Source of the DNA: an uncultured Pseudomonadota bacterium
GTDB taxonomy: Bacteria; Pseudomonadota; Gammaproteobacteria; Methylococcales; Methylomonadaceae
Direction of reading: 5' to 3'
Assembly (NCBI GenBank): GCA_903847275.1
Contig: CAINDC010000196.1
Span: 3,884-67,883, forward strand
Length of the DNA: 64,000 nucleotides
Part shown: one piece after another, positions 3,958 through 64,000 of the stretch
Numbering within the stretch: position 1 is the stretch's first letter
Layout: each line of letters begins with the position of its first letter
Position numbers and translations under genes: made by a program
Notes under the pieces: model-generated
Database searches by the model: none
Told to the model about the DNA's origin: nothing
What the model saw: the letters and a program-made list of their open reading frames with translations, nothing else

Positions 3958-6422
<2,465 letters not shown>

Positions 6423-6513: not shown

Positions 6514-7026
6514 TTAGCACCCACTTGTGGCATAAGTAGTTGTTGAATTACTTGCTGTTTCAACACGAACACGACCTGTTGCAGATATAACCACAGATCG
6601 AAAATCTGAAGACGAACAAAAAATAAAATGCCCACCTTTGGCGCGACCACTTGCATCATAACTAACAAAATTTTGATATGTTCCTTTTCCTGTTCCATAA
6701 GGTGCTGTGATAGTTGCGCTGAGTGCATCAAAAGTAGCAAAAGTAGGTTCTGCTGGGAGATTTTGAACATTATTGTCATTAGTATCTACAAAAACATCCC
6801 AACCTTTTTCCCATGTCGTTTTTTTAAATACAGCAACCGATTTATGCTGTTTTATTGCTTCAAATCGTGCAAGTTGCAACGCGCTCACCATTGCATTTGC
6901 TGCTGAAGTTAATCGAGTGCTTGCAATAATTGATTGAAAACTTGGCAAACCAATCGCCATCGTCATCGAAATAATTGCAACAACGATAAGTAATTCAATT
7001 AACGTAAAGCCTTTGTTTATATTCAT
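6514..7026 (-). CDS. Type IV pilus minor pilin, GspH/FimT/FimU family
   Basis: Start trimmed to MNINKG|FTLIELLIVVAII (prepilin cleavage and methylation motif). A GspH-like segment LPSFQSIIASTRLTSAANAMVSALQLAR follows. Confidence 0.7.
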   Translation of the reverse strand: MNINKGFTLIELLIVVAIISMTMAIGLPSFQSIIASTRLTSAANAMVSALQLARFEAIKQHKSVAVFKKTTWEKGWDVFVDTNDNNVQNLPAEPTFATFDALSATITAPYGTGKGTYQNFVSYDASGRAKGGHFIFCSSSDFRSVVISATGRVRVETASNSTTTYATSGC

Positions 7027-7051
7027 GAAGTTGACTATCCTAATAATTCTA

Positions 7052-7759
7052 TCAAGTTCCACAGCCAACAACGTGATCGCTGATAATTTCGCGTGTTGTG
7101 CCATTTACACTCGTTGAAATCACATCAATTTTATAAACTTCTTTTGGACAGGCTGGTTCAGGTAAAGTAGTTGGTGGCTCACTTCTGCATCTTAAATTTG
7201 GATTGCTATTGCTTGCATCTGGATTCGCACATAACGGATCATAAGGTTGATAACAATAATTAGCGGTATCGGAAAAAAGAGCCGCTACTTCTTCAATCGT
7301 TTTACCAGTGCAATTTACATCACCGCTTTTAGGATGACACGTTAATGTCGCGGTTGTTTTATCGTAAGAAGTACATTGCTGATAAGGTGAAAGACACGCA
7401 ACTGATGAAATGATACCGCCATCAATAACACCCGCTAAATCTATTTGTTGTTTATAAGATGCAGTTGGTGTGCATTGATGGGCATTGTTGTAAATTGAAA
7501 GTTTTGAATCTATAGGAAAATAATCATCTGATAAGTAGTTGTCATGACTTGAATAAGTATTAATAGTATTTTTAGCATTTGCCAATACAGCTTCGGTGTC
7601 TGCAAATGCTTGTGTTAAAAGTCTAACGTTTCCCGCCATTTGTAATTGCTGTTTATTTTGCTGAATCATGCGTGTTCCTGCCAATGTCAGTAATAACAGC
7701 ATCACCAAACTAAACGCTAATATCGCGCCACGTTGTTGTTTTGATCTAGAGAATTTCAT
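7052..7759 (-). CDS. pilX: PilX-like type IV pilus minor pilin/assembly protein (Cys-rich)
   Basis: N-terminus KQQRGAILAFSLVMLLLLTLAG resembles the PilX_N domain. Position after pilW fits. At least 10 Cys in the C-terminal half. Confidence 0.55.
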   Translation of the reverse strand: MKFSRSKQQRGAILAFSLVMLLLLTLAGTRMIQQNKQQLQMAGNVRLLTQAFADTEAVLANAKNTINTYSSHDNYLSDDYFPIDSKLSIYNNAHQCTPTASYKQQIDLAGVIDGGIISSVACLSPYQQCTSYDKTTATLTCHPKSGDVNCTGKTIEEVAALFSDTANYCYQPYDPLCANPDASNSNPNLRCRSEPPTTLPEPACPKEVYKIDVISTSVNGTTREIISDHVVGCGT

Positions 7760-7768
7760 TATGTTTTC

Positions 7769-8692
7769 TCAATGGTCAGCAGCACGTAAATAAATCGTTT
7801 TTGAAAAAACTTTATAAAGTCGTTTTTCATCTATTGCAGGATATTCCGTTGTGCCACCTTCTATCGACCACCCTGTTTTAAAACGTGTTAAATTTTTATC
7901 CGCACTTCGCATAACAAGAAAAACTTTAACCGCAAATACTTTTGTCCAATCCGATACATCAGCGGCTTTTGCATAATAAAACGTGTTCGCTGTTTTATCG
8001 TGAATGCCATATTTGAAAACTAATTTTTCAACTTCTGAAATCATTGGTTGAGATGTTGACTTAGACGTGCAAGACATTGAATGGTCACTGCTTTTGTAAG
8101 TGATATAAACAGGAACGACATCATACGCAGAGTATGAATCAACAATACAAATTGAATTATTTTTCTGACTTTTCGTTGAATCTAACACGAAACGATAAAC
8201 AAGAGCATTGTCTGCTCCTTTAATAATTTCGCACGTTGTAGTGCTTATTTCTGTTTTGGTACTTTCAATAGCATTTGTAGCATTTGTAGCATTTGTCGTT
8301 ACTGTTGGGCAATTTAAATCTAACCCAGAACTTAAAACGTTTGGTTGAGTTTCTGTAATTTCAGTTAGTGGTGTTCTAGGACTATCATTCTTGTCGCTGC
8401 ACGTTTTTGTAGTTGTGGATGTTGGTAAACCTGAAATCGGGGTTTTTGTAACGATTGTTTTAGAGCAACTAAAGTTTGCTCCTGATTCTGAATACCCAGC
8501 CACCAAAAGCCCCTTCGCTAAATCCTCCAAAACAAACGTACCATCGTCTGTCATATCACTTAAATTTCGTTGCATAGTGAAACTTTTTTGCGATTGAATA
8601 AATAGCTGACTAATACCTGCAACCAAAGCCAAACCAAGCATCATGCTAACCATTAATTCAATCAGCGTTACCCCCCGCTGTTTTTTAATCAT
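7769..8692 (-). CDS. pilW: Type IV pilus minor pilin PilW
   Basis: MIKKQRG|VTLIELMVSMMLGL prepilin motif. Size and order after pilV fit. 4-nt overlap with the pilV stop. Confidence 0.65.
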   Translation of the reverse strand: MIKKQRGVTLIELMVSMMLGLALVAGISQLFIQSQKSFTMQRNLSDMTDDGTFVLEDLAKGLLVAGYSESGANFSCSKTIVTKTPISGLPTSTTTKTCSDKNDSPRTPLTEITETQPNVLSSGLDLNCPTVTTNATNATNAIESTKTEISTTTCEIIKGADNALVYRFVLDSTKSQKNNSICIVDSYSAYDVVPVYITYKSSDHSMSCTSKSTSQPMISEVEKLVFKYGIHDKTANTFYYAKAADVSDWTKVFAVKVFLVMRSADKNLTRFKTGWSIEGGTTEYPAIDEKRLYKVFSKTIYLRAADH

Positions 8693-9171
8693 GGTGTGAC
8701 CTTCAAATAAAGCGTGGAATCTTTTGATAAAGCTCCCACATTTTTGCTATTTGTTCGCCCCCAACGAGTAATTAAACATAATGCAGTTCCCGTAATAATT
8801 GCACATGGTGTATTAGCTTGAGCTGTGTGACTAATTTCAACCGTTGCGCCCGTTTTAGGTTTTGAAAAAATAGCTTCGGCACTTCGCTTCCAATAACCAT
8901 AATCATTATTTGCCATTGTTTGTCCGTCACAAGGTGTGACTTTTGTACAATCACCCGTGCCAATTGTCACAGCAGCCCAATTGGCAACATTATTCCCCCG
9001 AATCCTATCCTGCATTTCATAAGCAAGCAACGTCGCTTGCTGGTAATAATAGGCATCTTGATTATCACGCAATGAAATTGCCTGTATTCCTGCTAATCCT
9101 AACAATCCAATCGCCAAAATCACCATCGAAATTAACACTTCAATCAGCGTAAAACCGCGTTGCAAAATCAC
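8689..9171 (-). CDS. pilV: Type IV pilus minor pilin PilV
   Basis: GTG start. (M)ILQRG|FTLIEVLISMVILAIGLLGLAGIQ is typical of PilV. Confidence 0.7.
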   Translation of the reverse strand: MILQRGFTLIEVLISMVILAIGLLGLAGIQAISLRDNQDAYYYQQATLLAYEMQDRIRGNNVANWAAVTIGTGDCTKVTPCDGQTMANNDYGYWKRSAEAIFSKPKTGATVEISHTAQANTPCAIITGTALCLITRWGRTNSKNVGALSKDSTLYLKVTP

Positions 9172-12100
9172 TATTTAACCACCTCTTTCCAATTCAACTG
9201 TCCGCGCGAACCGACTGTACCACTTGAGAAACAGTGATTTGTACTGGAAATTTTTACACCGCTAATAGTTGCGTTAGTCACGGTACCAAATGTCGTCGCC
9301 GTTGTTTCAGGATCCATTTCGCCACTAATAACGTTCCCGGCACTTACAACGGTGACTCCAGAAACAGTTGTGGTCGTCGCATTTTCAATAATCGCATTCA
9401 TTAATTGCCCTTTAACTCTCCGACCTTGAGTAATTGTGGTATCTGAATTGGTAATCGGTTTATCGAACTGTCCACTGGTGACGCTACCCCGCACAGGATT
9501 ACCATCACTGTCTGTACCAGAGGTAATCATTCCGTTAGTAATGGTTGCGGGTACAGGAGTTGCTGAACCCTCTTTTATTGAGGTTGGATTCGTTATTCCG
9601 CCAGTCACTTTAATGAAGCAACTTAATTTAAGCGACCCATTAGCCTCCAAACAACTTAGTTTTGTGTTTTGGGTTTTATCATCAATATAATCATTTGGAA
9701 TATCGATATAAGCTCCTGCAATTACTGCCCCCGTAATTTTTGCACCAACTACTTTGCCTTTCGTAATAACAGGTGTGATGGGGGCGCCATTTGAATCGGT
9801 ATAAGGTTCGATAACCAATGCTCCTTGTTGTTTCGTACCGTATTTCACAACCGTATTTACTAATGTGGAATTATCAAACGTTCCATCTTGTGTGGAGGCA
9901 TTTGCAATTCTTGCCCGTTTAATTGTCACGCTCGTTGTTACTGACGCATCGCTTTTAACACCTGTTACTGCGCCAGTATCATCGTAACAATAGGTGACTT
10001 CAGGAGGCAGTGGAAGCGTGACAGCTTCTTCAACCAATGCGTCAGGGATCCGAGGACATAATGGATCGTTAGCAGGATTGAGCGAATCCTGACAAGCCTG
10101 AACTGGATTTTTTGGTAACGGTGCCGTGCAATCAGCAGCATCTGCAGGAATTTTGGGATCATGACAAACTGGCGCATGACATTTACCTAAATAATAATTT
10201 TCATCGTGCTGCCAATCTACCCAGGCACTGCGTTCAATAGATTGATCTGTGCCACCATTACAAATATCAATTTTATCCGTAATAACAAGTTCTTTACTCG
10301 TTTCATCTAATACACCACTTCTCGATACATCAACGTCATAAGTTCCCGCATTTAAAATTGGAAGCTGTAATGACCATGTTGTGCCTGAAACAACAATGGT
10401 ACTTTGTGTATAGGTGACACCGCCGACAGTTACCGTAAAGGATTCGCTACCTCCTAACGTAGTACCACCTATGCTTCCTGATAATGTTATCGGTTGCTGC
10501 GCTTTGGTTAATGTCGCAATAGGGTTTACCGTTGGCGTTGGATAAACACACACTGTTCCAGCTGCGTTAGCCACCTTCGGTAATGAACACGTTGCAGTTA
10601 CTTTTAATTCACTTGTTGTTGCATCTATTAACCCCGTATCACCTGTTGCCACAACGTTATAAATACCTGCGGGTAAAACAGAAGGCGCAAATGTCCATGT
10701 TGTTCCCGTAATAATCGCATTACCTGTTGCTTGAGTTGCTCCCGTTGCATCATTTACGTTAATGACTAGTGACGTACTTGTGCCAACGTTACCACTTAAT
10801 GCAGCGGCAATTTTATCCGTTGTCGTTGCGATATTTACGGTTGGAACAGCTGGTGTGATACACGCAGTATGTGCTGAATTAATTATTTCTGGTGTGGTAC
10901 ACACTAAATTCACAACCAATTCATTGTGTGTAATATCTTTTGATGTATTTCTTGTGGCTTCAACTTCATGCGTTCCCGCTGGAATTACATCTGTCGCAGG
11001 AATGGTAAGTGTCCAATTAAGCGCATTAACCACGAGAGGATTTGTTGCCACTGCGCTTTTTGTGTAAGTTTTATTGTTCACAAGAACTGAAAAACTTTCA
11101 GTTGCTCCAAGCGCAACAACCCCAACCGTTCCTGTAATTATAGGCGTACTGCTATTTGTGTTTAGCGACATAACCGTTGGTACAGGTGTAATACACGCAT
11201 CACCTGCTGCGTTATATACTTCAGGAATCGTACACGTTGTAACAGTCAATTCATTTGGAGTCGCATCAACTAAACCAGAGTTACCTAACGCCACAACATC
11301 ATAAGTGCCAGCGGCAATCGGTGTTGAAGGTGTAAATGTCCATGTACTACCAGTAATAGTCGCAGCTCCCGTCACTTCTGGAGTGCTTTTAATCGTAATC
11401 GTCAATGACGTACTCGCTCCAGCATTACCAGACAAAGCAGGTGCAATTTTATCCAGCGTTGTTTTCGTATTAACTGTCGGAACGGCACTTGCTGTCACGG
11501 TTAATGTTCCCGTTCCAGAACCAGAAACTCCTGTTGCCGTCACGGTATAATTTCCCGCCGTAGCAATCGCTGCACTCGTGGTACACGTCCATGTTTTTGC
11601 CGCTAAATCAATTACAACTGGACATGAAATACCTGTACTTCCAATCGTAACGCCTGTTATTGACGTACTCGTTCCCAATGTACCACTCAAATGTGCAGGA
11701 GCTAAATCAGTCGTTGTTGCTGCCAACACAGTCGGTGCAATCGGCGTTTGTGTGACAGGGAATGTACAACTTGCCGTTAATGTAGTTGGAACGCCTGTTG
11801 CAGTTGCTGTGTAAGTTCCTGCAATTGGCAAAACTACCGAATCAAATGACCATGCGGTTGTCGTTGTCGTTCCACTATTCGTCTTTGTTCCCGTTGCTTT
11901 TTGTACGCCACTTGAATCTTTTACCGTAATCGTCAACGGACTACCCGTTCCGAATGTACCAGTAATAGTTGGGATTCCTGCATCTGTAACAGTCGCTGGA
12001 CAAACTATGGTTGGATTAACTGCTGATTGTGTCACAGTCAATTCTTGGGTTGTTATATCAACCAACCCCGTGTTGCCTTTCGCTTCAACGTCATAAATAC

Positions 12101-15100
12101 CCGCAACTGCAATGACTGCCGATGGCGTATAACTCCATTTTCCATCAGCTGCTGGCGTTATTGTTCCGCTAACAATCGGCGGGGGGGTTTTAATCGTAAT
12201 CGTCAATGATGTGCTTGTTCCAGCCGTACCAGTCAGCGTCGGAATTTGTTTATCCGTAAACGTTTTTGGATAATCCACCGTTGGTTTTGCTGATACGCTT
12301 AATTCGCCAGTCGTGTTATCAACCAAAGTCACAGTATTACTACCCGTGCCAGATGTTCCCGTTGCAATCACATCATACATTCCCGAAGGAATAGCCGTTG
12401 CAGGTGATCTCGTCACTGACCATGTTGTTGCACTGCCACTTTTCGTAGCGGTACCGATTGCATAAGTGACATTAGTTGTGGAATGTTTCGCTGTAATTGT
12501 TACCGATGTACTCGTTCCAAATGTACCCGTAATCGTTGGTGCAACGGTATCTGTTGCAGTTTGATTTGGGTCAATCGTTGGAAGCGATTCGCACGCTGTT
12601 CCAGCCGCATTGACTGTGGCGGGTGATGCACAGAATTTTGTTACGGTTAATTCATTAATCGTTTGATCAACTACACCATAACTATCGGTCGCGGTAACGC
12701 TATAAACACCAACTGGCAGCTTTGTTGTCGATGTAAATGTCCACGTTGTTGAACCTGACGATTTACTTGTTGCCGTACCCGATATTGATTGAGTATTACC
12801 ATTGGAATCTTTAATCACAATGGTCATCGAAGTCGCATCACTATCCGCCGTACCATTCAACGTCACCACTGTTTGGTCATCAATTGATTTTGCAGTAACG
12901 GTTGGTTTCGTTTTACAAGTTACAGCGGTTGCAGGGCAATTTGAATCCTGACTTACCCAAATCGTATCAAAGCCATTAGGTGTGTAAGAACCATCAGCAA
13001 GACATTTTGTCCTAACTGCAACTGCTGTATCTTGTACTCCATTGCTAAAGCGGCAAATTTTGATACTTTGCTTGTTACCACCACTACAGCTACTAGAGCT
13101 ACTAGTATCTTGTGCTAAATAAGCATTCCCTGTTGGTAATGGACTAGGCAGTGGATATGTTACAACAGTACACGCTTTGCCCGTTTGTGAACCACTCACA
13201 ACTAATTCTTCTGTCGTGGTATCAACTAAACCTGTATCACCCGTTGCGACGACATTATAAGTTCCAGCTGGAATTGGATTGTTTAGCTGGAAAGACCATG
13301 TTTTGTTTGAAGAATTACCGTTATAGTTTATTGAACCACTACTAGTCGCATAAGTAGCCCCCGTCGTGGAATCATTTATCGCAATCGTTACCGATGCACT
13401 TGTTCCAACATTACCAGTAAGTGTTGGTTTTGTTATGTCTGTAGCTGTTTTGCCTGCATCAACTGTCGGAACAGTGGTTGCTATCGACACAGTCAATTCG
13501 TTAATCGATATATCAACCAAATTACCATGAGCAGAATCGCCCGTTGCTGTTACGTTGTAAGTACCAGCTGTTGTGAGAATCGCAGGCGTATAACTCCACG
13601 TTGTACCACTTGGCGTTATGGTGCTAGACGTTGCCATCGTTGCACCCGCTGAATTTTTAACCGTAATAATTAACGATGTACTTGAGCCAAGAGTTCCTGT
13701 TAATGTCGGTGCCACGGAAGTTGTTGTACTTACTGCATCTACTGTCGGAACAACCGTTTCCGACACAACCAATTCGTTAGATGTTCCATCAACTAAGCCT
13801 GTTTCGCCAGTGACAATGACATCATAAGTTCCTGCTGGAAGTTTATTTGGGGTTGTCACTGACCAAGTTGTTGCCACGCCGCTTTTAGTTGCGGTATTGA
13901 TTGGGTAAATGACGTTGGTTACTGAATTTTTTGCCGTAATCGTAAGCGTGGTGCTTGTTCCGAATGTACCTGTAATTGTCTGCGTTGCAGTTGTTGTGGC
14001 TTTTTGATTAGGGTCAACCGTTGGATTAACTGCCGCTTGCGTTACGGTTAATTCATTTAATGACGTATCAACCAAACTGCCATGAGCAGAATCACCTGTC
14101 ACGACAACGTTATAAGTCCCCGCTGTTGTAATGACTGCTGGTGTATACGTCCATGTGCCAGCAACTGAATTGATGGTTGCCGCGCCACTTAAACCATTTA
14201 CCGTCACGGTTAATGATGTACTTGTTCCAACTGTACCGCTAAGAGCTGGCGCAACAGCTGTTGTCGAAGTGGCTGTATTTACAGTGGGTGCAACGGTAGC
14301 AGTAACCGTTAATGTTCCTGTACCAATTAAACCCGCGATATTACCTGTTGCCGTGACGGGATATGTATTTGCCGCAAGTGCTGTTGGTAATGTGTACGAC
14401 CACGTTGAACCCGTTACAGTTGCCGCGCCACTCACACCATTCACACTAACTGTAATGGCGGTGCTTGTGCCTGTTGTACCTGTTATGGTTGGAATTTGTT
14501 TGTCATTGAAAGTAATGGGAGTCACAGTTGGGACAGTCGTTGCGCTTACCACTAATTCATTGGTTGTGGTATCCACTAAACCTGTATTACCCGTTGCAAT
14601 GACGTTGTATGTGCCATTAGGTAAAATTGCGGGCGTATAAGACCATGTTCCCGCACTCAAATTAACAGTTGCCGCGCCACTCACACCATTGACGGTAATT
14701 GTTAATGATGTACTTGTTCCGAGTGTACCGCTTAACGATGCGGCGATTTTATCGTTCGTGGTTGTGCTGTTGATAGTCGGAACAGAAGGTGTAATACACG
14801 CAGTTCCTTGGGCATTAAAAATTTGTGAAGCTGAACACGCTAAAGTCACTGTTAATTCATTCGTTGTGGCATCTGTTAAACCTGTATTGGTAGTCACAAC
14901 AACATCATAAATGCCGATAGGTAAAATTGCAGGTGCATAAGTCCAACTTGTACCACTAATGGTTGCTGTACCGCTTGCTGCTGTTGTACTGTCCGCTGCA
15001 TTTTTCACTGTAACAGTGATAGATGAACTCGTCCCAACTGTTCCACTTAATGCAGGTGCAAGTAATGTAGATGCCGCTGCGGTATTTACGGTTGGACGAA

Positions 15101-16613
15101 CAGCCGTGATACAGGTTTTTGTTGCTGCATCGAGTATTTGAGTCGATGAACAAATAGGAACATCATCTGGGCATTCTCTACCTGCTGCACCAATCGTAGA
15201 TTCTACGTCGTTTGGATGGGTTTCATGCCCCGTTGTTCCTGTTGGATTGATAATTGCCTTAACGTAATGTCTAAGCGAATTATCGAGAGAATTTTCAACG
15301 CCATCGCCATTTCTATCGCCAATGTCGCCTGTATGACAAAGCACTACGTCGCTAGGCAATGGTGATACGCAGGCAGTTAATGATAAGTTTAAAACTTGTG
15401 GCACATTACAAACAGGCGTAATGGTCAGCTCATTATTGGATTGATCAACTAATCCGCCTGTCCGAGTTGCAGATACTTCGTATGTTAGAACAGGTAAAAC
15501 GGTTGGGATAGTCAATGACCAATTTGCACCAGTCATCACTAAATTAGCATTGCCATTGCTATAAACTACGCCATTTACGGTGACAGAAAAAGTTTCCCCT
15601 ACCGCCAATGGACTTCCCGTTTGAATACCTGTCGCGCTAGTTGCTGTGACAATGCCACCAAGTGAGCCTGTAATAGTAGGTTTTGTATCAGAAGTGGTCA
15701 GCAAATTGACTGTTGGCGCAATAGTTTCAAACGGTGCAACACCTGATTCTTTAAAACCATCTTTAACAAAAACTGCCCCGTAAAACCGTACACCTGTATT
15801 CGCACAAGTTGAAACAGCACTACCTATGCCAGTAGGTGCTGTGCCATTGGCAAATTGCCCTAATGTTAATTTCAAACTTGTGACTGTATTAAACCGTGTT
15901 TGAACACGGCTTGAATCTGTAATATATAAACCTGCGTTACCAGCACAATTGGAATTAGAAAAACGAATTTTTCCATTAAGACCTGCACCTGCGACCATGT
16001 GCTGTACAAGATTGGTTTTATAATCACTAGCGAATACATAGGAAACAAAGCCACCGAATTCATTGTATTCAACATTTTCATCATCTAATGAATTGTTATA
16101 TACGTTTTGTAAAACAACGGCTTTTCCTGAAGTGTCTTGAAATGAAATAGTAAAATCAACGTGAGCATCAGCAGTATGTGAAACTGCGGTTAATTGCGGT
16201 GCAAATATTGCACCTTCTGGTACGACACCCCCAAACGATGTTACGTAATTAACGGTTGTGCCAGTTAATGTTCTTTGTGCAGGATTTTTCGGTGTTGGAT
16301 TAGGTTTTGGTTCATCGAATTTCGTTATTGTCATATTGACGATATTATCTACGCTCACAATAGCGTCAACTTGAGTTCCATTAACTGTAATGACGTTGGT
16401 ATATTTAAATTTCGCCCCGACTGAAGCTGTCCCCGCACCAGCTGCAACGGCTGTTCCCGCAATAAGTACAGGATCTGAAAAATTTAATAATCGTCCTTGT
16501 GTATCAAGTGCTGAAAAGGTAAAAGCCGTCGCATAATTCGGCGACAAAAAGGTCATCAACAAACTGATGATGAAAAATAAGAAATTTTTTTTAATGTTCA
16601 TGTTCATATTCAT
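9171..16613 (-). CDS. Giant secreted Ig-like-repeat protein (2480 aa), putative pilus-associated adhesin
   Basis: One uninterrupted ORF. It has a Sec signal peptide (MNMNMNIKKNFLFFIISLLMTFLSPNYATA), a unique N-terminal ~265 aa, about 17 degenerate ~85-100-aa modules, and a unique 368-aa C-terminal domain. The TAG stop shares 1 nt with the pilV GTG start. Confidence 0.85.
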   Translation of the reverse strand: MNMNMNIKKNFLFFIISLLMTFLSPNYATAFTFSALDTQGRLLNFSDPVLIAGTAVAAGAGTASVGAKFKYTNVITVNGTQVDAIVSVDNIVNMTITKFDEPKPNPTPKNPAQRTLTGTTVNYVTSFGGVVPEGAIFAPQLTAVSHTADAHVDFTISFQDTSGKAVVLQNVYNNSLDDENVEYNEFGGFVSYVFASDYKTNLVQHMVAGAGLNGKIRFSNSNCAGNAGLYITDSSRVQTRFNTVTSLKLTLGQFANGTAPTGIGSAVSTCANTGVRFYGAVFVKDGFKESGVAPFETIAPTVNLLTTSDTKPTITGSLGGIVTATSATGIQTGSPLAVGETFSVTVNGVVYSNGNANLVMTGANWSLTIPTVLPVLTYEVSATRTGGLVDQSNNELTITPVCNVPQVLNLSLTACVSPLPSDVVLCHTGDIGDRNGDGVENSLDNSLRHYVKAIINPTGTTGHETHPNDVESTIGAAGRECPDDVPICSSTQILDAATKTCITAVRPTVNTAAASTLLAPALSGTVGTSSSITVTVKNAADSTTAASGTATISGTSWTYAPAILPIGIYDVVVTTNTGLTDATTNELTVTLACSASQIFNAQGTACITPSVPTINSTTTNDKIAASLSGTLGTSTSLTITVNGVSGAATVNLSAGTWSYTPAILPNGTYNVIATGNTGLVDTTTNELVVSATTVPTVTPITFNDKQIPTITGTTGTSTAITVSVNGVSGAATVTGSTWSYTLPTALAANTYPVTATGNIAGLIGTGTLTVTATVAPTVNTATSTTAVAPALSGTVGTSTSLTVTVNGLSGAATINSVAGTWTYTPAVITTAGTYNVVVTGDSAHGSLVDTSLNELTVTQAAVNPTVDPNQKATTTATQTITGTFGTSTTLTITAKNSVTNVIYPINTATKSGVATTWSVTTPNKLPAGTYDVIVTGETGLVDGTSNELVVSETVVPTVDAVSTTTSVAPTLTGTLGSSTSLIITVKNSAGATMATSSTITPSGTTWSYTPAILTTAGTYNVTATGDSAHGNLVDISINELTVSIATTVPTVDAGKTATDITKPTLTGNVGTSASVTIAINDSTTGATYATSSGSINYNGNSSNKTWSFQLNNPIPAGTYNVVATGDTGLVDTTTEELVVSGSQTGKACTVVTYPLPSPLPTGNAYLAQDTSSSSSCSGGNKQSIKICRFSNGVQDTAVAVRTKCLADGSYTPNGFDTIWVSQDSNCPATAVTCKTKPTVTAKSIDDQTVVTLNGTADSDATSMTIVIKDSNGNTQSISGTATSKSSGSTTWTFTSTTKLPVGVYSVTATDSYGVVDQTINELTVTKFCASPATVNAAGTACESLPTIDPNQTATDTVAPTITGTFGTSTSVTITAKHSTTNVTYAIGTATKSGSATTWSVTRSPATAIPSGMYDVIATGTSGTGSNTVTLVDNTTGELSVSAKPTVDYPKTFTDKQIPTLTGTAGTSTSLTITIKTPPPIVSGTITPAADGKWSYTPSAVIAVAGIYDVEAKGNTGLVDITTQELTVTQSAVNPTIVCPATVTDAGIPTITGTFGTGSPLTITVKDSSGVQKATGTKTNSGTTTTTAWSFDSVVLPIAGTYTATATGVPTTLTASCTFPVTQTPIAPTVLAATTTDLAPAHLSGTLGTSTSITGVTIGSTGISCPVVIDLAAKTWTCTTSAAIATAGNYTVTATGVSGSGTGTLTVTASAVPTVNTKTTLDKIAPALSGNAGASTSLTITIKSTPEVTGAATITGSTWTFTPSTPIAAGTYDVVALGNSGLVDATPNELTVTTCTIPEVYNAAGDACITPVPTVMSLNTNSSTPIITGTVGVVALGATESFSVLVNNKTYTKSAVATNPLVVNALNWTLTIPATDVIPAGTHEVEATRNTSKDITHNELVVNLVCTTPEIINSAHTACITPAVPTVNIATTTDKIAAALSGNVGTSTSLVINVNDATGATQATGNAIITGTTWTFAPSVLPAGIYNVVATGDTGLIDATTSELKVTATCSLPKVANAAGTVCVYPTPTVNPIATLTKAQQPITLSGSIGGTTLGGSESFTVTVGGVTYTQSTIVVSGTTWSLQLPILNAGTYDVDVSRSGVLDETSKELVITDKIDICNGGTDQSIERSAWVDWQHDENYYLGKCHAPVCHDPKIPADAADCTAPLPKNPVQACQDSLNPANDPLCPRIPDALVEEAVTLPLPPEVTYCYDDTGAVTGVKSDASVTTSVTIKRARIANASTQDGTFDNSTLVNTVVKYGTKQQGALVIEPYTDSNGAPITPVITKGKVVGAKITGAVIAGAYIDIPNDYIDDKTQNTKLSCLEANGSLKLSCFIKVTGGITNPTSIKEGSATPVPATITNGMITSGTDSDGNPVRGSVTSGQFDKPITNSDTTITQGRRVKGQLMNAIIENATTTTVSGVTVVSAGNVISGEMDPETTATTFGTVTNATISGVKISSTNHCFSSGTVGSRGQLNWKEVVK
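10278..15728 (-). repeat. Tandem coding repeats (~17 Ig-like modules) inside the giant ORF
   Basis: Recurrent signature: G(T/S)xGTS(T/S)S(L/I)T(I/V)TV ... W(S/T)(Y/F)TP ... AGTY(D/N)V(V/I)ATG(D/N)TGLVD.T.NEL.V(T/S). Copies are degenerate at the DNA level. Confidence 0.75.
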
Positions 16614-16778
16614 ATTGATGTACCTTTACGACTTAAATTTAAAACGACTTATTTTTTGAGATTAACATTTCACAATTAAGGTGTTAAACATCTACGCCTC
16701 CAATCTCACAAAACTTTATAATGGCGCGATTATAAGCTCGTTATTTAACGTCTGCCATTTTTTTAAAGAACAAAACAA

Positions 16779-39945: not shown

Positions 39946-41151
39946 TTACATTTTGGTTCCAGTTGAGGTGGTCTTCATCACACACGCTGGCGTTGCTGGT
40001 ATTCCAAATTCAGGCATTGCTGGCATTGCTGGAGTCGATTGCTGTTCTAAATGAGAGATAGTTCCATCACTGTTATACGTTAACTGTCCAGAAATTGATG
40101 GCATAGGAAATGACGGCATTCCAGCAACTGGTGCAACTGTTGGAAATGTCACTTGGTAGCTAATCGTATTTTCATCAATCAGCGATGCTGAGTATGATGG
40201 CACAGAGCCATAAGGTGAAACTGGAAACGGAAAAGAGACTTGATTACCAGTAACTTTTATAGGCATTACACCTAGAGGCATTACAGGAGATTCACTGGGA
40301 CCTCCACAATTACTGCCATCAACTGTTCCCTTTAAATTCCAATTTCCATCGAATTTATTTGAACCTGATGTTGCTGTACCTTCATTAGGTGTATTTGGCG
40401 TAACATTTGGAATAATAGGAGTTGGAATTATTGGTTCAAATTCTGAAGAATTTTCCACTACCGTAAAGCTATCGCCCAATGAATCAATTTCAATGTCATT
40501 TTTATCAAATAAGCTAATTTGAAATTGTTGCTCTCCAATTTCTGTTAGTGTGAAATAAAAATAGAATGCCCTTGATTCTGTTGCTGCGGCAGTCATTGGT
40601 TGGAACTCTTCACCATTAACGCTGATTTTTATGCTGTAAAAATCTTTTGCCAACGGTTTATCTAACTTTACTCTGATTTGTACAGCGTTTCCGAGTGTAA
40701 TATATCCTTTCGGAACAACAGAAATACTGTCAATGGCTGGCGGTGTAGGAGTACCGACAGAAAAAGAGCGAATTAAACCTTTTTTGCTGTTATCTAGCGT
40801 TGTCTTACCAACAGCTTGAACTTGCCAAAAATAATTGCCGTCTGTTTTCAACATAGCATGAGTTGCCGCGACGTTATAAGAAGGCGACGCGACGGTGTAC
40901 ATAAAACACGTTTTGGTATTCAAGCATTTAAATTTGTTCGCATCGTAATTCGCAAAACTTTTATCGTTAGAAAATATCACACGATATTTAGTTGCGCCCG
41001 CTACCTTCTGCCAAGAAAACTTAGCCAACTTTTGCAATGGTAAATTAGCACTGTCTGCGGGTGTTAACATCTGTGGAGTGTTTAATGGTGCGGCTTGCAC
41101 CACGTTCACAACTAAAAACGCAAGTGGAATTACTGCTTTCAGATAATTCAT
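39946..41151 (-). CDS. Secreted hypothetical protein (FN3-like N-terminal domain, Met-Pro-rich C-terminus)
   Basis: Start trimmed to MNYLKAVIPLAFLVVNVVQA (signal peptide). WQKVAGATKYRVIF resembles an FN3-type strand. No family recognised. Confidence 0.5.
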   Translation of the reverse strand: MNYLKAVIPLAFLVVNVVQAAPLNTPQMLTPADSANLPLQKLAKFSWQKVAGATKYRVIFSNDKSFANYDANKFKCLNTKTCFMYTVASPSYNVAATHAMLKTDGNYFWQVQAVGKTTLDNSKKGLIRSFSVGTPTPPAIDSISVVPKGYITLGNAVQIRVKLDKPLAKDFYSIKISVNGEEFQPMTAAATESRAFYFYFTLTEIGEQQFQISLFDKNDIEIDSLGDSFTVVENSSEFEPIIPTPIIPNVTPNTPNEGTATSGSNKFDGNWNLKGTVDGSNCGGPSESPVMPLGVMPIKVTGNQVSFPFPVSPYGSVPSYSASLIDENTISYQVTFPTVAPVAGMPSFPMPSISGQLTYNSDGTISHLEQQSTPAMPAMPEFGIPATPACVMKTTSTGTKM

Positions 41152-41250
41152 TATTTGACCCATTTCTCGCATGATGAAAATCCCTTTAATAAAAACGGCG
41201 CATTGCCAAAACAATACGCCGCCGTGTTGAACAAATTAAAAACGCGACTA

Positions 41251-42189
41251 TTAGCCGTCTGCGTTAATTTTAGCAATAATATCTTTCAAATTTTGTTCAC
41301 AACCTTCGTTAGCCACTTGGCACGTTCCCGCGTTCAAATGTCCGCCGCCGTTGTAACTCAAACATAATTCGCCCACATTGGTGTTTGAAGTACGATTCAA
41401 AATTGATTTACCAATTGCAAAGACGGTATTTTGTTGCTTCATGCCCCACATAACGTGGATTGAAATGTTGCAATCAGGATAAAGCGCGTAAATCATGAAA
41501 CGATTTACCGCATAAATGGTTTCTTCGTTGCGTAAATCCAAAACAACCAAGTTGCCGTGAACCGTTGAACAACGTTGAATTTGTTCTTTCGCAGCCGCTT
41601 CGTGTTCTTTAAATAATTTCACACGTTCTTGAACGTCTGACAATTTCAAAATATCGTCAATTGAATGGTCTTTACAATACGCAATCAAGTCCATCATCAA
41701 TTGATAATTTGAAACGGTGAAATCTCTAAAGCGACCCAAACCAGTACGCGCATCCATCAAGAAATTCATCAACACCCAGCCATCTGGATTCAAAATTTCG
41801 TCTTTGTTGAACTGTGCCGCATCACCTTTATCAACCGCTTTCATCATTTCATTCCAGCTTGCTGGAAAACGTGATGCGCCACCGTAATAATCATAAACCA
41901 CACGCGCAGCAGAAGGTGCGTCAGGTGAAATGATGTGATTATCTTGTTTTTCGTTACGAATGGTTTCGCTCAAATGATGATCAAATGCCAAATGCACGCC
42001 TTTTACATACGGTAAATTGGTAGTGATGTCGTTGTCGGTGATGTCGATAATTTCATCTTGCATATCTTTTGGATGAACGAATTTAATTTCTTCAATTAAA
42101 TTCATTTCTTTCAAAAGTACCGCACAAATTAACCCGTCGAAATCGCTACGAGTCACTAATCTAAATTTTTTTTCTGTCATGATTTTCAC
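41251..42189 (-). CDS. DHH-superfamily phosphoesterase (NrnB / exopolyphosphatase-related type)
   Basis: 312 aa. SDFDGLICA, AFDHHLS (DHH) and NGGGHLNAG motifs. Confidence 0.6.
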   Translation of the reverse strand: MKIMTEKKFRLVTRSDFDGLICAVLLKEMNLIEEIKFVHPKDMQDEIIDITDNDITTNLPYVKGVHLAFDHHLSETIRNEKQDNHIISPDAPSAARVVYDYYGGASRFPASWNEMMKAVDKGDAAQFNKDEILNPDGWVLMNFLMDARTGLGRFRDFTVSNYQLMMDLIAYCKDHSIDDILKLSDVQERVKLFKEHEAAAKEQIQRCSTVHGNLVVLDLRNEETIYAVNRFMIYALYPDCNISIHVMWGMKQQNTVFAIGKSILNRTSNTNVGELCLSYNGGGHLNAGTCQVANEGCEQNLKDIIAKINADG

Positions 42190-58704: not shown

Positions 58705-60087
58705 TTACACATCGACACTGTTTAATTGATATTTTTTTACTCGATAACGCAATGTTTCACGAGTGGTACCCAAATCTCGTGCCGCTGCAGTCAAATTATT
58801 TTCGGCACGTTCCAATGCCGTTTTGATAATAAATTTATCCATATCATCTAACGCCATGCTTCCATCGAGTGGCAAATGAATATGTGTACCATCTGCCGTC
58901 ACTTTTTCAGCGGACTTTCCAAGCTGTAACCATTGTTCTGGAAACGCAGAACCTTCGGCAAATAAAACGCAGCGTTCAATAACATTTCTTAATTCCCGCA
59001 CATTTCCACGCCAATCATGCGCTTTGAGTTTTTGCCAAACTTCGTTGGGTATTTGTTTAACGTGTTGACCTGCTTTCGCGTTGTATTCGGCGATAAATAA
59101 CGGCACGAGTTCATCTAAATCTTCAATAGCATCACGCAACGGCGGTAAATTGACCCGAAAAACATTTAAACGATGATACAAATCCGCCCGAAATGTTCCT
59201 GCTTGCGCCATATTTTCTAAATCTCGATTACTTGCCGCGATAATTTGCACATCAACGCTGATTTCTTTTTCGCTGCCGAGTCGGCGAACTTTGTGATCTT
59301 CGATAACTTTTAATAATTTCGCTTGAAGTTCTAATGGCATTTCGCCAATTTCGTCCATGAATAATGTGCCGCCGTCCGCTTGTTCTAATAAGCCTCGATG
59401 ACGACCTGTCGCCCCTGTAAATGCGCCTGCTTCGTGACCAAAAAGTTCTGATTCTAAAAGTTCACGCGGTAATGCGGCACAATTTACTTCAATCATAGGC
59501 TGAACTGCACGCGACCCACCATAATGTAAAATTCGTGCAATGAGTCCTTTGCCTGTTCCCGTTTCGCCCCCAATAATTAATGCACTAAAGGGAACTTTCG
59601 TGAGCTTCGTTAACAGTTGCCGAACCGCTTTCGCTTGTGAACTCTCGCCCACAAAAGCTTCGGGTGAATACCGTCGATGACCTTGTTTAGTTTGGTCGAT
59701 AACCCGACGAGACATTGATGCGCTGCGTGACGCGCTGGTAACAACCAAATCGAGACGGTCTAAATCGCAAGGTTTTTCTAAAAAATCATAAGCTCCCAAA
59801 CGCAATGCTCGTACCGAATCAGGCACATTTCCGTAACCCGTTAAAAATATCCATTCGGCAATACTGACTTGTTTTTTCATGGATTCCATAAAATCCAATG
59901 CGTTACCATCAGGTAAGTTCATATCTGATAAAATCAGCAACGGCTCAACCGTTTTTGAAATTAAAAGCTCTCGCGCCTCACTTAACGTGGTGATTAAAAC
60001 AACTTCCCAGCCCATTTGTTTGTAATGTCGCGACAATTCCAATCCAAGCAGTTTTTCATCTTCAATTATTAACAGCGTTTTTATCAT
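58705..60087 (-). CDS. Sigma-54-dependent response regulator (REC-AAA+-HTH), canonical
   Basis: 460 aa. Receiver Asp in ILSDMNLPDG, Walker A GETGTGKG, intact GAFTGA (HEAGAFTGATG), Walker B LFMDEIGEM. Confidence 0.9.
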   Translation of the reverse strand: MIKTLLIIEDEKLLGLELSRHYKQMGWEVVLITTLSEARELLISKTVEPLLILSDMNLPDGNALDFMESMKKQVSIAEWIFLTGYGNVPDSVRALRLGAYDFLEKPCDLDRLDLVVTSASRSASMSRRVIDQTKQGHRRYSPEAFVGESSQAKAVRQLLTKLTKVPFSALIIGGETGTGKGLIARILHYGGSRAVQPMIEVNCAALPRELLESELFGHEAGAFTGATGRHRGLLEQADGGTLFMDEIGEMPLELQAKLLKVIEDHKVRRLGSEKEISVDVQIIAASNRDLENMAQAGTFRADLYHRLNVFRVNLPPLRDAIEDLDELVPLFIAEYNAKAGQHVKQIPNEVWQKLKAHDWRGNVRELRNVIERCVLFAEGSAFPEQWLQLGKSAEKVTADGTHIHLPLDGSMALDDMDKFIIKTALERAENNLTAAARDLGTTRETLRYRVKKYQLNSVDV

Positions 60088-61526
60088 TACTTTGTCCTAT
60101 TAAACTGATTCGGCAAAATCACCGTTACCACCGCGCCATCGTTATTACCCAGCGTTAAAACACCGTGATTATCTTTCACAAATCGTTGCACCATCGCCAA
60201 ACCTAATCCCGTCCCACGTTCACGACTGGTACGAAACGGGCGAATGCCATAATCTAACCATTCTTGTGCGAAACCCTGTCCGTTGTCGTGAACTTGAATT
60301 TGTAATTCGTCACCATTTTTACTTGCTGAAATTAAAATATCACCGCTTTTTCCTTCCAACGCATCAGCCGCATTAAGTAATAAATTCAATAACGCCTGAC
60401 GCAAACCACTTTCTGGCAAACAAACGAACAATGTTTCTGGAGTCGTAAATTGCAGATTAAGATTTTCAGAAATTTGATAACGCACCAACGTCACAAGATC
60501 GCGAATTAACACGCTCAAATCAAAACGACTCGGAATTTCGGGTGTATGTTTACTGGCGTTAAGCATTTCATTTAATAATTTTGCCAAACGTTTTAATTCA
60601 CTATCAATCAGCTCCAAACGTTCACATTGATTTTCGTTGTCGATTTCACGGCGCAAATTTTTAAATGCCATTTGAATTCCAGCCAATGGATTCCGAATTT
60701 CATGCGCTAATTCTGCTGATACTTCACCAATTGCTGCCAACCGTTCGGCACGAGCCAAACTATGTTGTTGTTCCAATAATGCTTGTGTCGCTAAACGCAC
60801 TTCTCGCTGCAACGATTGAGCATACTCTCGTTTAGTTTCTTCTAGTTCTGTTAAATGCTTCACCATCCCGTTGTAACTATAAAAAACGGGCAGCAATAAT
60901 GGATCAATGCGTTTGGTTGCAATCGGTGTGTAATTTTCGTCGGAAAGATGCTCTAAAAGTTCCCGCAAATCGTTTAATGGATGCAAAATTCGACGTTTTA
61001 AAAATAAAATCGCACCACTCAAAATCGTCGCAAACATTAACAACGCGATATATAACTCAGATTCTGTATCGATGTTAATGCCTTCAAGCATTTGTTCACG
61101 TTGCAACGTTTCGCTATCCAAAATTTCACTCATCGATTTTAAAACTTGAATCAAACTTTGTTGTTGCTGATTTTTATCGAGGCTTTTACTTTGCGCGAGT
61201 AAAGAACGCACCGTTTCTAAATGCTGACGTGTTTCTGTAGATAAATAATCACGGTCGGACATTAAACCGTCTATTTCCAATAGTAACGTCGTCAATAATT
61301 GCGGTGATAAGTTTCGGTCTTTATCATTCATGCGAGCAATAACAGCTTGTTGAAAATCTATCGACACATTTTGAATTCGGTGCGAATAATTGACGTAAGA
61401 AATAGCCGTGTTGAAATGATGATGTGTACGCCAAATCATACCGCCTAAAATACCAACTGCCAGAAGCAATAAACCTAAAAAAGCCAGTCCGCGTAATCTA
61501 GCTAAACGATAAGAAATAGAAGTCAT
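60087..61526 (-). CDS. Membrane sensor histidine kinase (2 TM, periplasmic sensor domain)
   Basis: 479 aa. H-box AELAHEIRNPLAGI and G-box GTGLGLAM. 1-nt overlap with the regulator gene. Confidence 0.85.
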   Translation of the reverse strand: MTSISYRLARLRGLAFLGLLLLAVGILGGMIWRTHHHFNTAISYVNYSHRIQNVSIDFQQAVIARMNDKDRNLSPQLLTTLLLEIDGLMSDRDYLSTETRQHLETVRSLLAQSKSLDKNQQQQSLIQVLKSMSEILDSETLQREQMLEGINIDTESELYIALLMFATILSGAILFLKRRILHPLNDLRELLEHLSDENYTPIATKRIDPLLLPVFYSYNGMVKHLTELEETKREYAQSLQREVRLATQALLEQQHSLARAERLAAIGEVSAELAHEIRNPLAGIQMAFKNLRREIDNENQCERLELIDSELKRLAKLLNEMLNASKHTPEIPSRFDLSVLIRDLVTLVRYQISENLNLQFTTPETLFVCLPESGLRQALLNLLLNAADALEGKSGDILISASKNGDELQIQVHDNGQGFAQEWLDYGIRPFRTSRERGTGLGLAMVQRFVKDNHGVLTLGNNDGAVVTVILPNQFNRTK

Positions 61527-61556: not shown

Positions 61557-62300
61557 TTATTTATGGAATTTTGGAATCCACATTTGATAAAGACTCAATA
61601 AAATCTGCATTCCCATTGAAATCCCCATTAACGCGCCACTTAAAATAACAACGTAAGCAAATTCAGGAATCGTTTTTGTAATAAACCATGACAACACGTC
61701 GAGCAACATCGCGGCGAATGGAACAACCATTGCAATACGTTTTACATAGATGTTTATTTCACACAACAAGAAAATTTTACCAATAAAAAATAAGATGAAC
61801 GCAATACCAAATAAATGAATGTGTGACACACGAATCAATGTCGGAATTGTCGCACCACCAGGTTTAGCAACTTCTGAAACACCTTCATAATTCGTCAAAT
61901 TGGGTAACGATGGATTGATAGTTGGCGTGTGACACATAATGCAATCACGATTCAAAATCGGTGCGATAGTGTCTTCATAAGCCGATTCAGACGCGCCACT
62001 ATGAATCCAACGCAAAATCACATCTTGGTCACTTTTGATTTTTAGGTTAGAAGCCATAATGCCTTTAACCGCCGTTCCTAAACGAGTTTGATTTGTCGAA
62101 CCATAATAACTAATTACGACATCTTCCACTGAAAGTCCTGCTTTGCCATCTAAACCTTGATGCGTGTAATACATATTCGCTAACGCTGCTAAATATCCCA
62201 AACCAATCGTCAGCAAAAAAACAGTATTCAAAATTCGTTCACTAATCGAAATATCTTTGAAGCGAATAAAGCGTTTTTCACCAATCATTCTGTCAGCCAT
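61557..62300 (-). CDS. Uncharacterised 4-TM inner-membrane protein with a periplasmic CXXCH motif
   Basis: 247 aa. TM1 ILNTVFLLTIGLGYLAALA, a ~110-aa loop containing CIMCH, then three TM segments (the first carries SHIHLFG). Confidence 0.6.
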   Translation of the reverse strand: MADRMIGEKRFIRFKDISISERILNTVFLLTIGLGYLAALANMYYTHQGLDGKAGLSVEDVVISYYGSTNQTRLGTAVKGIMASNLKIKSDQDVILRWIHSGASESAYEDTIAPILNRDCIMCHTPTINPSLPNLTNYEGVSEVAKPGGATIPTLIRVSHIHLFGIAFILFFIGKIFLLCEINIYVKRIAMVVPFAAMLLDVLSWFITKTIPEFAYVVILSGALMGISMGMQILLSLYQMWIPKFHK

Positions 62301-63734: not shown

Positions 63735-63744
63735 AATTTCTCCT

Positions 63745-64000
63745 TTATTTACCACTTTTTAAAATACTAACGAGCCATGTAATTTCGTCTGATTCAAACG
63801 TTGATTTCCACGGTGGCATTGCTGTGCCTTTTCGACCATTGGTAATCGTTGTAATCAATAAATCATCTGCCTTATTTGCTAACGCGTCAGGTTTAAGTGA
63901 GGGTCCCATTGCACCTTGTAATTCCGGACCATGACAACCACTGCAACTATTTTGCAATAAAGCACGAATTTCAGTTTGACGTTCGGCGGACGGTTCAGCC
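63745..64000 (-). CDS. Periplasmic monoheme cytochrome c, c55X-like (C-terminal part; runs off right edge)
   Basis: The reading frame stays open to the window end (AEPSAERQTEIRALLQNSCSGCHG...). CSGCH heme motif and NGRKGTAMPPW. Paralogue of the gene at 44010-44312. Confidence 0.7.
   Translation of the reverse strand, partial: AEPSAERQTEIRALLQNSCSGCHGPELQGAMGPSLKPDALANKADDLLITTITNGRKGTAMPPWKSTFESDEITWLVSILKSGK

Follow-up and report, generated by a model that had tools for sequence, protein, structure and literature searches.

Among described systems, the PilC/PilY1 proteins (PF05567/IPR008707; PilC1/2 of Neisseria, PilY1 of Pseudomonas aeruginosa, ComC of Acinetobacter baylyi and PilY1.1 to PilY1.3 of Myxococcus xanthus) are functionally closest to the subject of this study, a giant secreted protein encoded beside minor pilin genes in a 64,000-nucleotide stretch of DNA (hereafter the window) from an uncultured member of the Methylomonadaceae (assembly GCA_903847275.1, contig CAINDC010000196.1). 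PilC/PilY1 proteins are held at the pilus tip, and license pilus assembly, via their last 10-12 residues (PMC13533445; bioRxiv 10.64898/2026.09.18.752573). Through these residues the sheet of PilK/PilX gains a further beta-strand, at the interface with PilJ/PilW (Ellison et al., PNAS 2026, PMC13533445), and the corresponding "plug" of PilC1 has a very low predicted local distance difference test score (pLDDT) in a model of PilC alone (Denic et al. 2026, bioRxiv 10.64898/2026.09.18.752573). Plug sequences vary among species, and in type II secretion GspK provides the strand in cis (PMC13533445). MshQ, which is not a PilY1 protein, is predicted to provide it in trans, and further, as yet unidentified tip subunits are expected (Ellison et al., PMC13533445). 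That a tip protein gives PilX its last strand has been known since 2026; the papers of that year trace priming and anchoring by PilC/PilY1 to the last dozen residues and leave open what the propeller contributes.

The window carries five closely spaced genes that encode the giant protein and four minor pilins. We consider it probable, with some reserve, that they constitute a complete tip and priming module of a type IVa pilus, in which the giant protein is a non-pilin adhesin that has the role of PilY1 and is docked on PilX by its tail. An earlier note on this DNA had viewed the protein as a pilus-associated or tip-presented adhesin in PilY1's stead, a proposal that gains support from the linkage in relatives, the lack of a propeller and a tail that would match the docking mechanism of 2026. 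The note's further claim of an undescribed cargo is correct insofar as the family is unnamed and unannotated; as a concept it was overstated, since MshQ had already been predicted to be a non-PilY1 tip protein (Ellison et al.). The literature has no description of the family or its fold, of the giant version with a stalk of immunoglobulin-like (Ig) domains, of the permutations in gene order or of the scattered paralogues that share the tail.

Minor pilin genes and their coupling to the giant gene

All window positions given in this text lie on the minus strand. The giant gene (9171-16613 in the map of open reading frames, ORFs) encodes a secreted, fibrillar adhesin-like non-pilin of 2480 amino acids (aa). 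It is followed by pilV (8689-9171, GTG start), which codes for a GspI-type core minor pilin (TIGR02523, 70.8 bits against a cut-off of 52.2), pilW (7769-8692) for a GspJ-type core minor pilin (PF16074, E = 2.8e-15), pilX (7052-7759) for an apical minor pilin of the GspK/PilK type (PilX_N, E = 2.2e-5, slightly below the cut-off), and a gene for a FimT/FimU-like minor pilin of the GspH type (6514-7026; GspH PF12019, E = 4.4e-17). N_methyl motifs are present in PilV, PilW and the FimT-like protein. The family searches thus confirmed the four pilin identities that had been assigned before. Together these proteins make up the full core set, equivalent to GspI, GspJ, GspK and GspH, and their identities point to a type IVa rather than a type IVb pilus. 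PilX has homologues in 104 clusters. Its C-terminal strand REIISDHVVGCGT is conserved; the PilX proteins are short (167-265 aa) and lack a large insertion.

At the junction of the giant gene and pilV (AAA GAG GTG GTT AAA TAG TG) the stop codon TAG (9173-9171) and the start codon GTG (9171-9169) share one base (TAGTG), and a Shine-Dalgarno sequence for pilV (GAGGTGG, 9179-9185) can be read within the final codons of the giant gene. Stop/start overlap and Shine-Dalgarno position suggest that translation of pilV is coupled to that of the giant gene. The genes pilV and pilW overlap by 4 nt (ATGA), pilW and pilX are 9 nt apart, and pilX is separated by 25 nt from the FimT-like gene when the latter starts with the ATG at 7026 (MNINKGFTLIEL). 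This is its probable start; the mechanically called ORF, which begins at 7104 and overlaps pilX, is probably too long. Overlaps and gaps are those given in the earlier note, the last one holding with the start at 7026.

Judged from this spacing, the five genes presumably form one operon. No convincing terminator was detected inside the five-gene string (scan not above chance). The best match to a sigma-70-like promoter (ATGGCA-18-TATAAT, 10 of 12 positions, consensus only) lies at 16729-16758, within the 165 nt that separate the giant gene from a divergent PHP-domain gene. Since promoter and terminator scans yielded counts not above those in shuffled sequences, they are weakly informative. No PF05567 match was obtained in the operon or in any other window ORF of at least 130 aa scanned with Pfam, and the absence of PilY1 first noticed in the operon therefore extends to the scanned ORFs of the window.

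Architecture of the giant protein

As had been noticed before, the giant protein has a Sec signal and no prepilin motif; both statements were confirmed with the ORF map and by reading of the sequence. The type I signal peptide (aa 1-29, 16527-16613) ends in ATA before F (MNMNMNIKKNFLFFIISLLMTFLSPNYATA, followed by FTF) and is kept in relatives (alignment A2), and a prepilin motif of the type G-F-T-L-I-E is absent. A protein identical to the giant is present in public collections, where it carries no name.

The N-terminal head (aa 30-299, 15717-16526) is predicted to form a lectin-like beta-sandwich (AlphaFold2 model; pLDDT 80.2, predicted template modelling score (pTM) 0.79). Its best Foldseek match was the N-domain of the Streptococcus gordonii adhesin Sgo0707 (4igb; E = 2e-6, probability 1.00), followed by the V domains of SspB/antigen I/II and, more weakly (E about 1e-3), by lectins of the concanavalin A type. 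The template modelling (TM) scores of these matches were modest (0.3-0.4). The model thus supports assignment to the fold class of lectin-like beta-sandwich adhesin heads, with no specific ligand supported. The head has no Pfam match and no sequence match in the PDB. Among 5.8 billion proteins its homologues were represented by a single fragment; the full-length relatives, about 12 in number and 37-94% identical, came from a search of representative proteins.

The stalk (aa 300-2112, 10278-15716) was resolved by an iterated self-search with hidden Markov models into 17 diverged Ig-like repeats of the Big_13 type (Pfam Big_13, E = 4.4e-14) with cysteine-pair linkers between them and two inserts (aa 400-506 and 1141-1236). 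The gene contains no tandem repeats at the DNA level. Head, Ig-repeat stalk and C-terminal domain together match the architecture of fibrillar adhesins, and adhesion by the giant protein is predicted on this basis. The first insert displays the motif I-C-H-x-x-x-G … H-x-x-H (for example KITICHVPPGNPANKHTIHIAFSAWAAHKAH; about 15200-15350, aa 420-470), which recurs at the N-termini of three short paralogues (P0004, P0005 and P0010) and in proteins encoded next to pilX in five distantly related loci (L034, L036, L037, L040 and L041; see below). The same insert contains an EF-hand-like sequence, DRNGDGVEN, at about aa 433-441, hence outside the C-terminal domain.

The C-terminal domain (aa 2113-2480, 9174-10277) is conserved in alignment A1, and its AlphaFold2 model (pLDDT 76.6, pTM 0.74) is all-beta. 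The domain contains ten cysteines and few aromatic residues. Foldseek found no match for it in the PDB (best E = 0.03, TM score 0.07) and did not retrieve the PilY1 structure 3HX6; sequence and profile searches against the PDB found nothing either. This excludes both a PilY1 propeller and an outer-membrane barrel as the fold of the domain. Readings as outer-membrane barrel, RTX domain or sorting signal were also discarded on account of composition and fold. Relatives of the domain are rare: 17 were found among 5.8 billion proteins, and about 44 true clusters were obtained when 1.84 billion representatives were searched exhaustively with a profile. All relatives with a named source stem from metagenome-assembled genomes of Methylococcales, and none has a Pfam domain. 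A TDxxGNPVRG loop is conserved in the domain, with an Asp pattern that is not kept across the family. A calcium site of the EF-hand-like type found in PilY1 (DxDxDGxxD) was not noticed in the domain on inspection by eye, no pattern search having been made.

Conservation culminates in the tail (aa 2459-2480, 9174-9239; NHCFSSGTVGSRGQLNWKEVVK): of the 32 columns that are invariant in alignment A1, 17 belong to the last 22 residues. Its pattern, N-x-C-F-S-S-G-T-V-G-x-x-G-Q-L-N-W-K-E-V-V-K, is retained in nearly all family members, and the core GQLNWKEVVK is a candidate plug strand for PilX. In the model of the 368-residue domain, pLDDT drops below 50 at residues 352-356 and 358-368. Thus, like the 12-residue plug of PilC/PilY1, the extreme C-terminus of the giant protein is conserved and unstructured in a monomer model. 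Searches of the PDB with the tail and with a PilX profile gave no match, nor did a search with the C-terminus of Acinetobacter baumannii PilY1, which was aimed at the tail of P. aeruginosa PilY1.

A PilY1 propeller or vWA domain was ruled out by Pfam and NCBIfam searches of the whole protein, which has no PF05567 match at E ≤ 0.01, and at its two ends also by PDB sequence and profile searches and by Foldseek comparison of the AlphaFold2 models. Interpretations as RTX adhesin, autotransporter or PEP-CTERM protein were rejected as well, given that no such Pfam or NCBIfam matches exist, a Sec signal is present and the C-terminus (…NWKEVVK) is hydrophilic.

Linkage and genomic setting in Methylococcales

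Loci for comparison, designated by L and a number, came from three sources and were compared by tblastn and ORF maps. A scan for the C-terminal domain in one genome per species yielded 18 loci, all of them from Methylococcales and with at most three copies per genome; 18 more were found when metagenomes were scanned with an alignment of PilX, and look-ups of PilX homologues added another eight. Among the 24 informative pilVWX loci of Methylococcales, 21 have a secreted non-pilin with the tail motif inside the minor pilin cluster. These 21 are not all independent, as they include near-duplicate assemblies (L016/L027, L032/L033 and L045/L046). The linkage that the earlier note had singled out for a check in relatives is therefore kept in most of them, though not universal. 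Because it recurs in many relatives, the arrangement is beyond chance.

The syntenic locus is bounded by the divergent PHP-domain gene and by pyrG-kdsA, and within it the giant gene occupies one of three alternative positions. It precedes pilV-pilW-pilX-fimT in the window and in L006, L007 and L018. In L014, L016, L027 and L045 it lies between pilX and fimT, which is the canonical slot of PilY1, and in L022, L023 and L046 it begins directly after pilX at the contig end. In L005 it follows fimT. In L003, pyrG is preceded by a tandem of two genes that encode the C-terminal domain, the upstream side being lost at the contig end. A PF05567 match was not found in any of these loci; as a positive control, the fimU-pilV-W-X-PilY1-pilE cluster of A. 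baumannii (L042) was recognised by PF05567 and VWA.

A more distant clade (L032-L034 and L036-L041, including a Methylobacter sp. assembly), whose PilV proteins are about 45% identical, has its clusters at unrelated chromosomal sites. Here the order is pilV-pilW-pilX-fimT with a gene for a secreted protein of 400-590 aa, without a Pfam PilY1 domain, in the slot between pilX and fimT. Since linkage is also seen at unrelated sites, it is not an artefact of an insertion hot spot. The slot proteins end in GRLNFRE(N/D/I)T, GRQGFREIT or GPISWREIT, from which, together with GQLNWKE of the giant protein, the consensus G-x-[LI]-[NS]-[WF]-[KR]-E is derived. Apart from the tail, an hhalign comparison of the slot proteins with the C-terminal domain returned a local match (96% probability) to a 31-column motif, ITxGxITAGTxxxGNxxxGxIT. 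The slot protein of L039 (10862-12220) has a DUF4114 domain (PF13448, E = 1e-10) and a GTGG/GTGD repeat and no propeller, and its GPISWREIT sequence is followed by about 40 further residues. DUF4114 is the N-terminal domain of PilY1.1 and PilY1.2 of M. xanthus (PMC13190605), and from its sequence the L039 protein looks like a bridge between the N-domains of Myxococcus-type PilY1 and the propeller-less family.

The closest relative of the window locus, L007 (6938-13425), encodes PilV, PilX and FimT proteins that are 89-98% identical to those of the window (FimT 98%) and a PilW that is 80% identical; its adhesin comprises 1320 aa, lacks the N-domain and is 51% identical in the body of the C-terminal domain. 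The comparison suggests that the adhesin gene was recently exchanged as a cassette. Given such similar pilins beside a diverged C-terminal domain body, and a divergence of the body that is uncorrelated with that of PilW or PilX over eight loci (Spearman rho 0.20 and 0.19; p about 0.3), the giant gene behaves as an exchangeable cassette with a fixed tail.

Several further features of the loci were recorded. In L029 (10001-10354) and L028 (1207-1572), which share the PHP-pyrG setting, pilX is truncated, apparently by one deletion that ran from the middle of pilX to the end of the giant gene in an ancestor with the order V-W-X-giant-T. A pair of small nucleotidyltransferase and HEPN-like genes, resembling a toxin-antitoxin system, is inserted between pilW and pilX in L018 (12303-13060) and L024 (9261-9707), and gene callers fused the nucleotidyltransferase to PilX in P0027, P0043, P0046 and P0052. 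Five loci of the distant clade (L034, L036, L037, L040 and L041) have downstream of fimT a gene for a conserved membrane protein of 427 aa with faint TPR matches, and next a gene for a ComP_DUS-type pilin; to judge from its sequence, the membrane protein may serve pilin modification or another accessory function. In L039 a pilin gene follows fimT and the membrane protein gene is missing. A second, divergent pilin-like cluster in L041 (3130-7724, minus strand) encodes a GspH-like protein, a PpdB-like protein, a protein of 416 aa without Pfam match and one of 657 aa that has an N_methyl motif. A paralogue of about 620 aa is always located 3' of a 909-aa spermine-synthase/TPR gene (L001, 5268-9887, equivalent to L009 and L011). 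Tandem pairs of genes with the C-terminal domain occur in L003 (3-8337), L010 (1-10939), L017 (6924-10852) and L001, and none of them adjoins pilin genes.

In the window, the operon is flanked by housekeeping genes, with pyrG, kdsA and glyA on one side and the PHP-domain gene, pnp, truB and cysS on the other. A PD-(D/E)XK_2 transposase-like gene of the Rpn type (3958-4803) is inserted between pyrG and kdsA; this insertion is shared with L003 and L007 and absent from L012, L014 and L016. The rest of the window consists of housekeeping and methylotrophy genes, among them FTHFS and two methylene-tetrahydromethanopterin (methylene-H4MPT) dehydrogenase genes, and no further pilus genes were found among those of its ORFs, 130 aa or longer, that were scanned with Pfam. 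Adjacent genes for a sigma-54 activator/response regulator and a histidine kinase (58705-61526) could, by their sequences, encode PilR/PilS-like regulators of pilin expression. Four ORFs of 247-458 aa (39946-41214, 41251-42189, 61557-62300 and 62379-63755) had no Pfam match at E ≤ 0.001.

Docking at the pilus tip and its alternatives

The giant protein fits the PilC/PilY1 template feature by feature. It is a large non-pilin exported by Sec and probably coupled in translation to homologues of PilI, PilJ, PilK and PilH; its gene stands with pilV-pilW-pilX, and the version of relatives occupies the slot after pilX. As in PilC/PilY1, a variable, adhesive N-terminal part is combined with a conserved C-terminal part, and the lectin-like head has a counterpart in meningococcal PilC, whose head is predicted to be lectin-like. 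Docking of the tail on PilX is therefore the most likely mechanism. By contrast to PilC/PilY1, the giant protein lacks the seven- or eight-bladed beta-propeller (tested by sequence and fold) and the vWA domain and is about twice as large, its stalk comprising 17 Ig domains; in the window its gene lies upstream of pilV, and paralogues sharing its C-terminal domain are encoded outside pilin operons. Because neither propeller nor vWA was found by profile or fold searches, we regard it as an analogue of PilY1 and not as a member of that family, which is in keeping with the substitution that the earlier note had envisaged.

Taking into account these features, we propose that the giant protein would be exported by Sec into the periplasm, where its invariant tail (…GQLNWKEVVK) would join the sheet of PilX, the apical minor pilin, as an additional beta-strand. 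PilV, PilW and FimT would bind to the pair of PilX and adhesin, and the resulting complex would prime pilus assembly and travel through the secretin at the tip of the growing pilus. The stalk of 17 Ig domains, some 60-70 nm in length, would then present the lectin-like head to its ligand, a surface or a glycan, and retraction of the pilus would pull on the bond between head and ligand. Docking on PilX, location at the tip and the adhesive function are all deduced from the features listed above.

A precedent for a tip protein without propeller is MshQ of Vibrio cholerae (mshDOPQ), a non-PilY1 protein of about 1200 aa encoded beside homologues of PilI, PilJ and PilK. AlphaFold predicts that its C-terminal strand is given to the PilK homologue MshP (PMC13533445). 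Unlike MshQ, which belongs to a different pilus class and has no Ig stalk, the giant protein has no MshQ-related Pfam or NCBIfam match, and its neighbours are PilV (TIGR02523) and PilW (PF16074) rather than Msh types. In apical subunits of the GspK, CpaL/TadG and ComZ types, an extra C-terminal beta-strand completes the apical sheet in cis (PMC13533445), whereas the giant protein, as a non-pilin, would supply its strand in trans.

Several observations weigh against a role of the giant protein at the pilus tip. In L024 and L043/L044, pilVWX-fimT clusters have no giant gene within 10 kb, and L029/L028 lack it together with all of pilX but its first 68 or so codons. Conversely, the giant gene of L012 adjoins pyrG without pilin genes. 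Two to three paralogues of about 600 aa per genome, which have the same C-terminal domain and tail, are encoded away from pilin genes, so that the domain could have another, general purpose. The missing correlation between the divergence of PilW or PilX and that of the C-terminal domain body counts on the same side. Compared with the tail of A. baumannii PilY1 (…VRWYERYR), the sole canonical tail used for comparison, the tail of the giant protein shares W-x-E alone. Gene spacing is the sole support for co-transcription. Finally, Methylococcus capsulatus is reported to possess a PilY1 homologue, MCA0087 (PMC4257694), and in view of this the propeller-less slot proteins look like a lineage-specific replacement within the Methylococcales, beside which a canonical pilY1 set may still be encoded elsewhere in the same genomes.

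Part of this evidence would also suit an ordinary fibrillar adhesin of the cell surface or the medium, whose C-terminal domain serves in anchoring or export by another route, for instance as a substrate of type II secretion or as a module bound to the outer membrane or to a surface layer; the proximity to pilin genes would then reflect co-regulation or shared history. The two to three C-terminal domain paralogues in varied contexts, the giant of L012 without pilins, the pilins of L024 and L043 without giant, and the evolution of the domain body independently of the pilins are all compatible with this explanation, as is the size of the domain (about 330-370 aa), which far exceeds the need of a 12-residue plug. 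Fibrillar adhesins such as Sgo0707 and SspB of antigen I/II, and among Gram-negative Big/Ig-repeat proteins LapA and SiiE, indeed resemble the giant protein in having a head, an Ig stalk and a C-terminal attachment module. They depend, however, on sortase/LPXTG anchoring or on type I secretion with a retention module, whereas the giant protein has a Sec signal, neither LPXTG nor RTX repeats, no PEP-CTERM or autotransporter features, and a gene in a minor pilin operon. Moreover, the linkage outlasts three gene orders and holds at unrelated sites in the distant clade, the tail and the 31-column motif are all that giant and short slot proteins have in common, and no locus contains a PilY1 for the tip role. 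We therefore judge such an adhesin, independent of the pilus, to be an unlikely explanation.

Encoding with tip pilins would likewise be expected of an exoprotein that is exported by the pilus acting as a secretion piston, stays at the tip transiently and is then released, as in the case of TcpF (toxin-coregulated pilus of V. cholerae) and CofJ (CFA/III of enterotoxigenic Escherichia coli). Secreted proteins that bind minor pilin tips of type IVb pili are known (PMC6048534), and paralogues that have the C-terminal domain in common would be in keeping with substrates that belong to one family and share an export signal. TcpF and CofJ are, like the giant protein, non-pilins of pilus operons that engage tip minor pilins. 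They differ in being small, soluble and released, and in binding via a flexible N-terminal segment to the homotrimeric minor pilin tip of type IVb pili, while the minor pilins considered here are of type IVa. Ellison et al. argue that released cargo of type II secretion does not add a strand, as opposed to retained adhesins (PMC13533445), and the design of head, stalk and anchor is suited to a tethered adhesin. Release by a piston is thus quite improbable for the giant protein. We give hardly any credence to an incidental adjacency, by which the PHP-pyrG region would be a recombination hot spot for large surface-protein genes and the pilV overlap a by-product of compaction: the locus is plastic, as witnessed by its permuted orders, the toxin-antitoxin-like insertion in L018/L024, the deletion in L029, the tandem genes of L003 and the nearby transposase-like gene, yet in the distant clade a slot protein with the tail persists in pilVWX-fimT at other sites, and linkage is found in 21 of the 24 informative loci.

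A tip adhesin docked on PilX thus remains our preferred interpretation of the giant protein. Going beyond it, one might speculate that the C-terminal domain and its …GQLNWKEV tail form a universal docking cassette by which several paralogous cargoes can be loaded onto the same PilX-capped tip, an idea that we put forward tentatively and with considerable doubt. Its cargo may comprise Ig-stalk giants with swappable heads, beta-helix proteins and the proteins of about 600 aa encoded elsewhere. If this were true, the type IV pilus of these methanotrophs would serve for modular display, with tip cargo that can be exchanged and without any PilY1 propeller, and the propeller would be dispensable for priming.

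Should the giant protein indeed be docked at the tip, it would provide, together with its relatives, a natural test of the tail model, with slot proteins that range from 400 aa to 2480 aa, have no propeller and keep just the conserved tail. It would thereby help to tell which parts of a tip adhesin are essential and how variable the tip cargo can be. It would, moreover, establish a protein family that is small, unannotated and not covered by any Pfam model, and suggest how uncultured methanotrophs of lakes attach to particles or partner cells.

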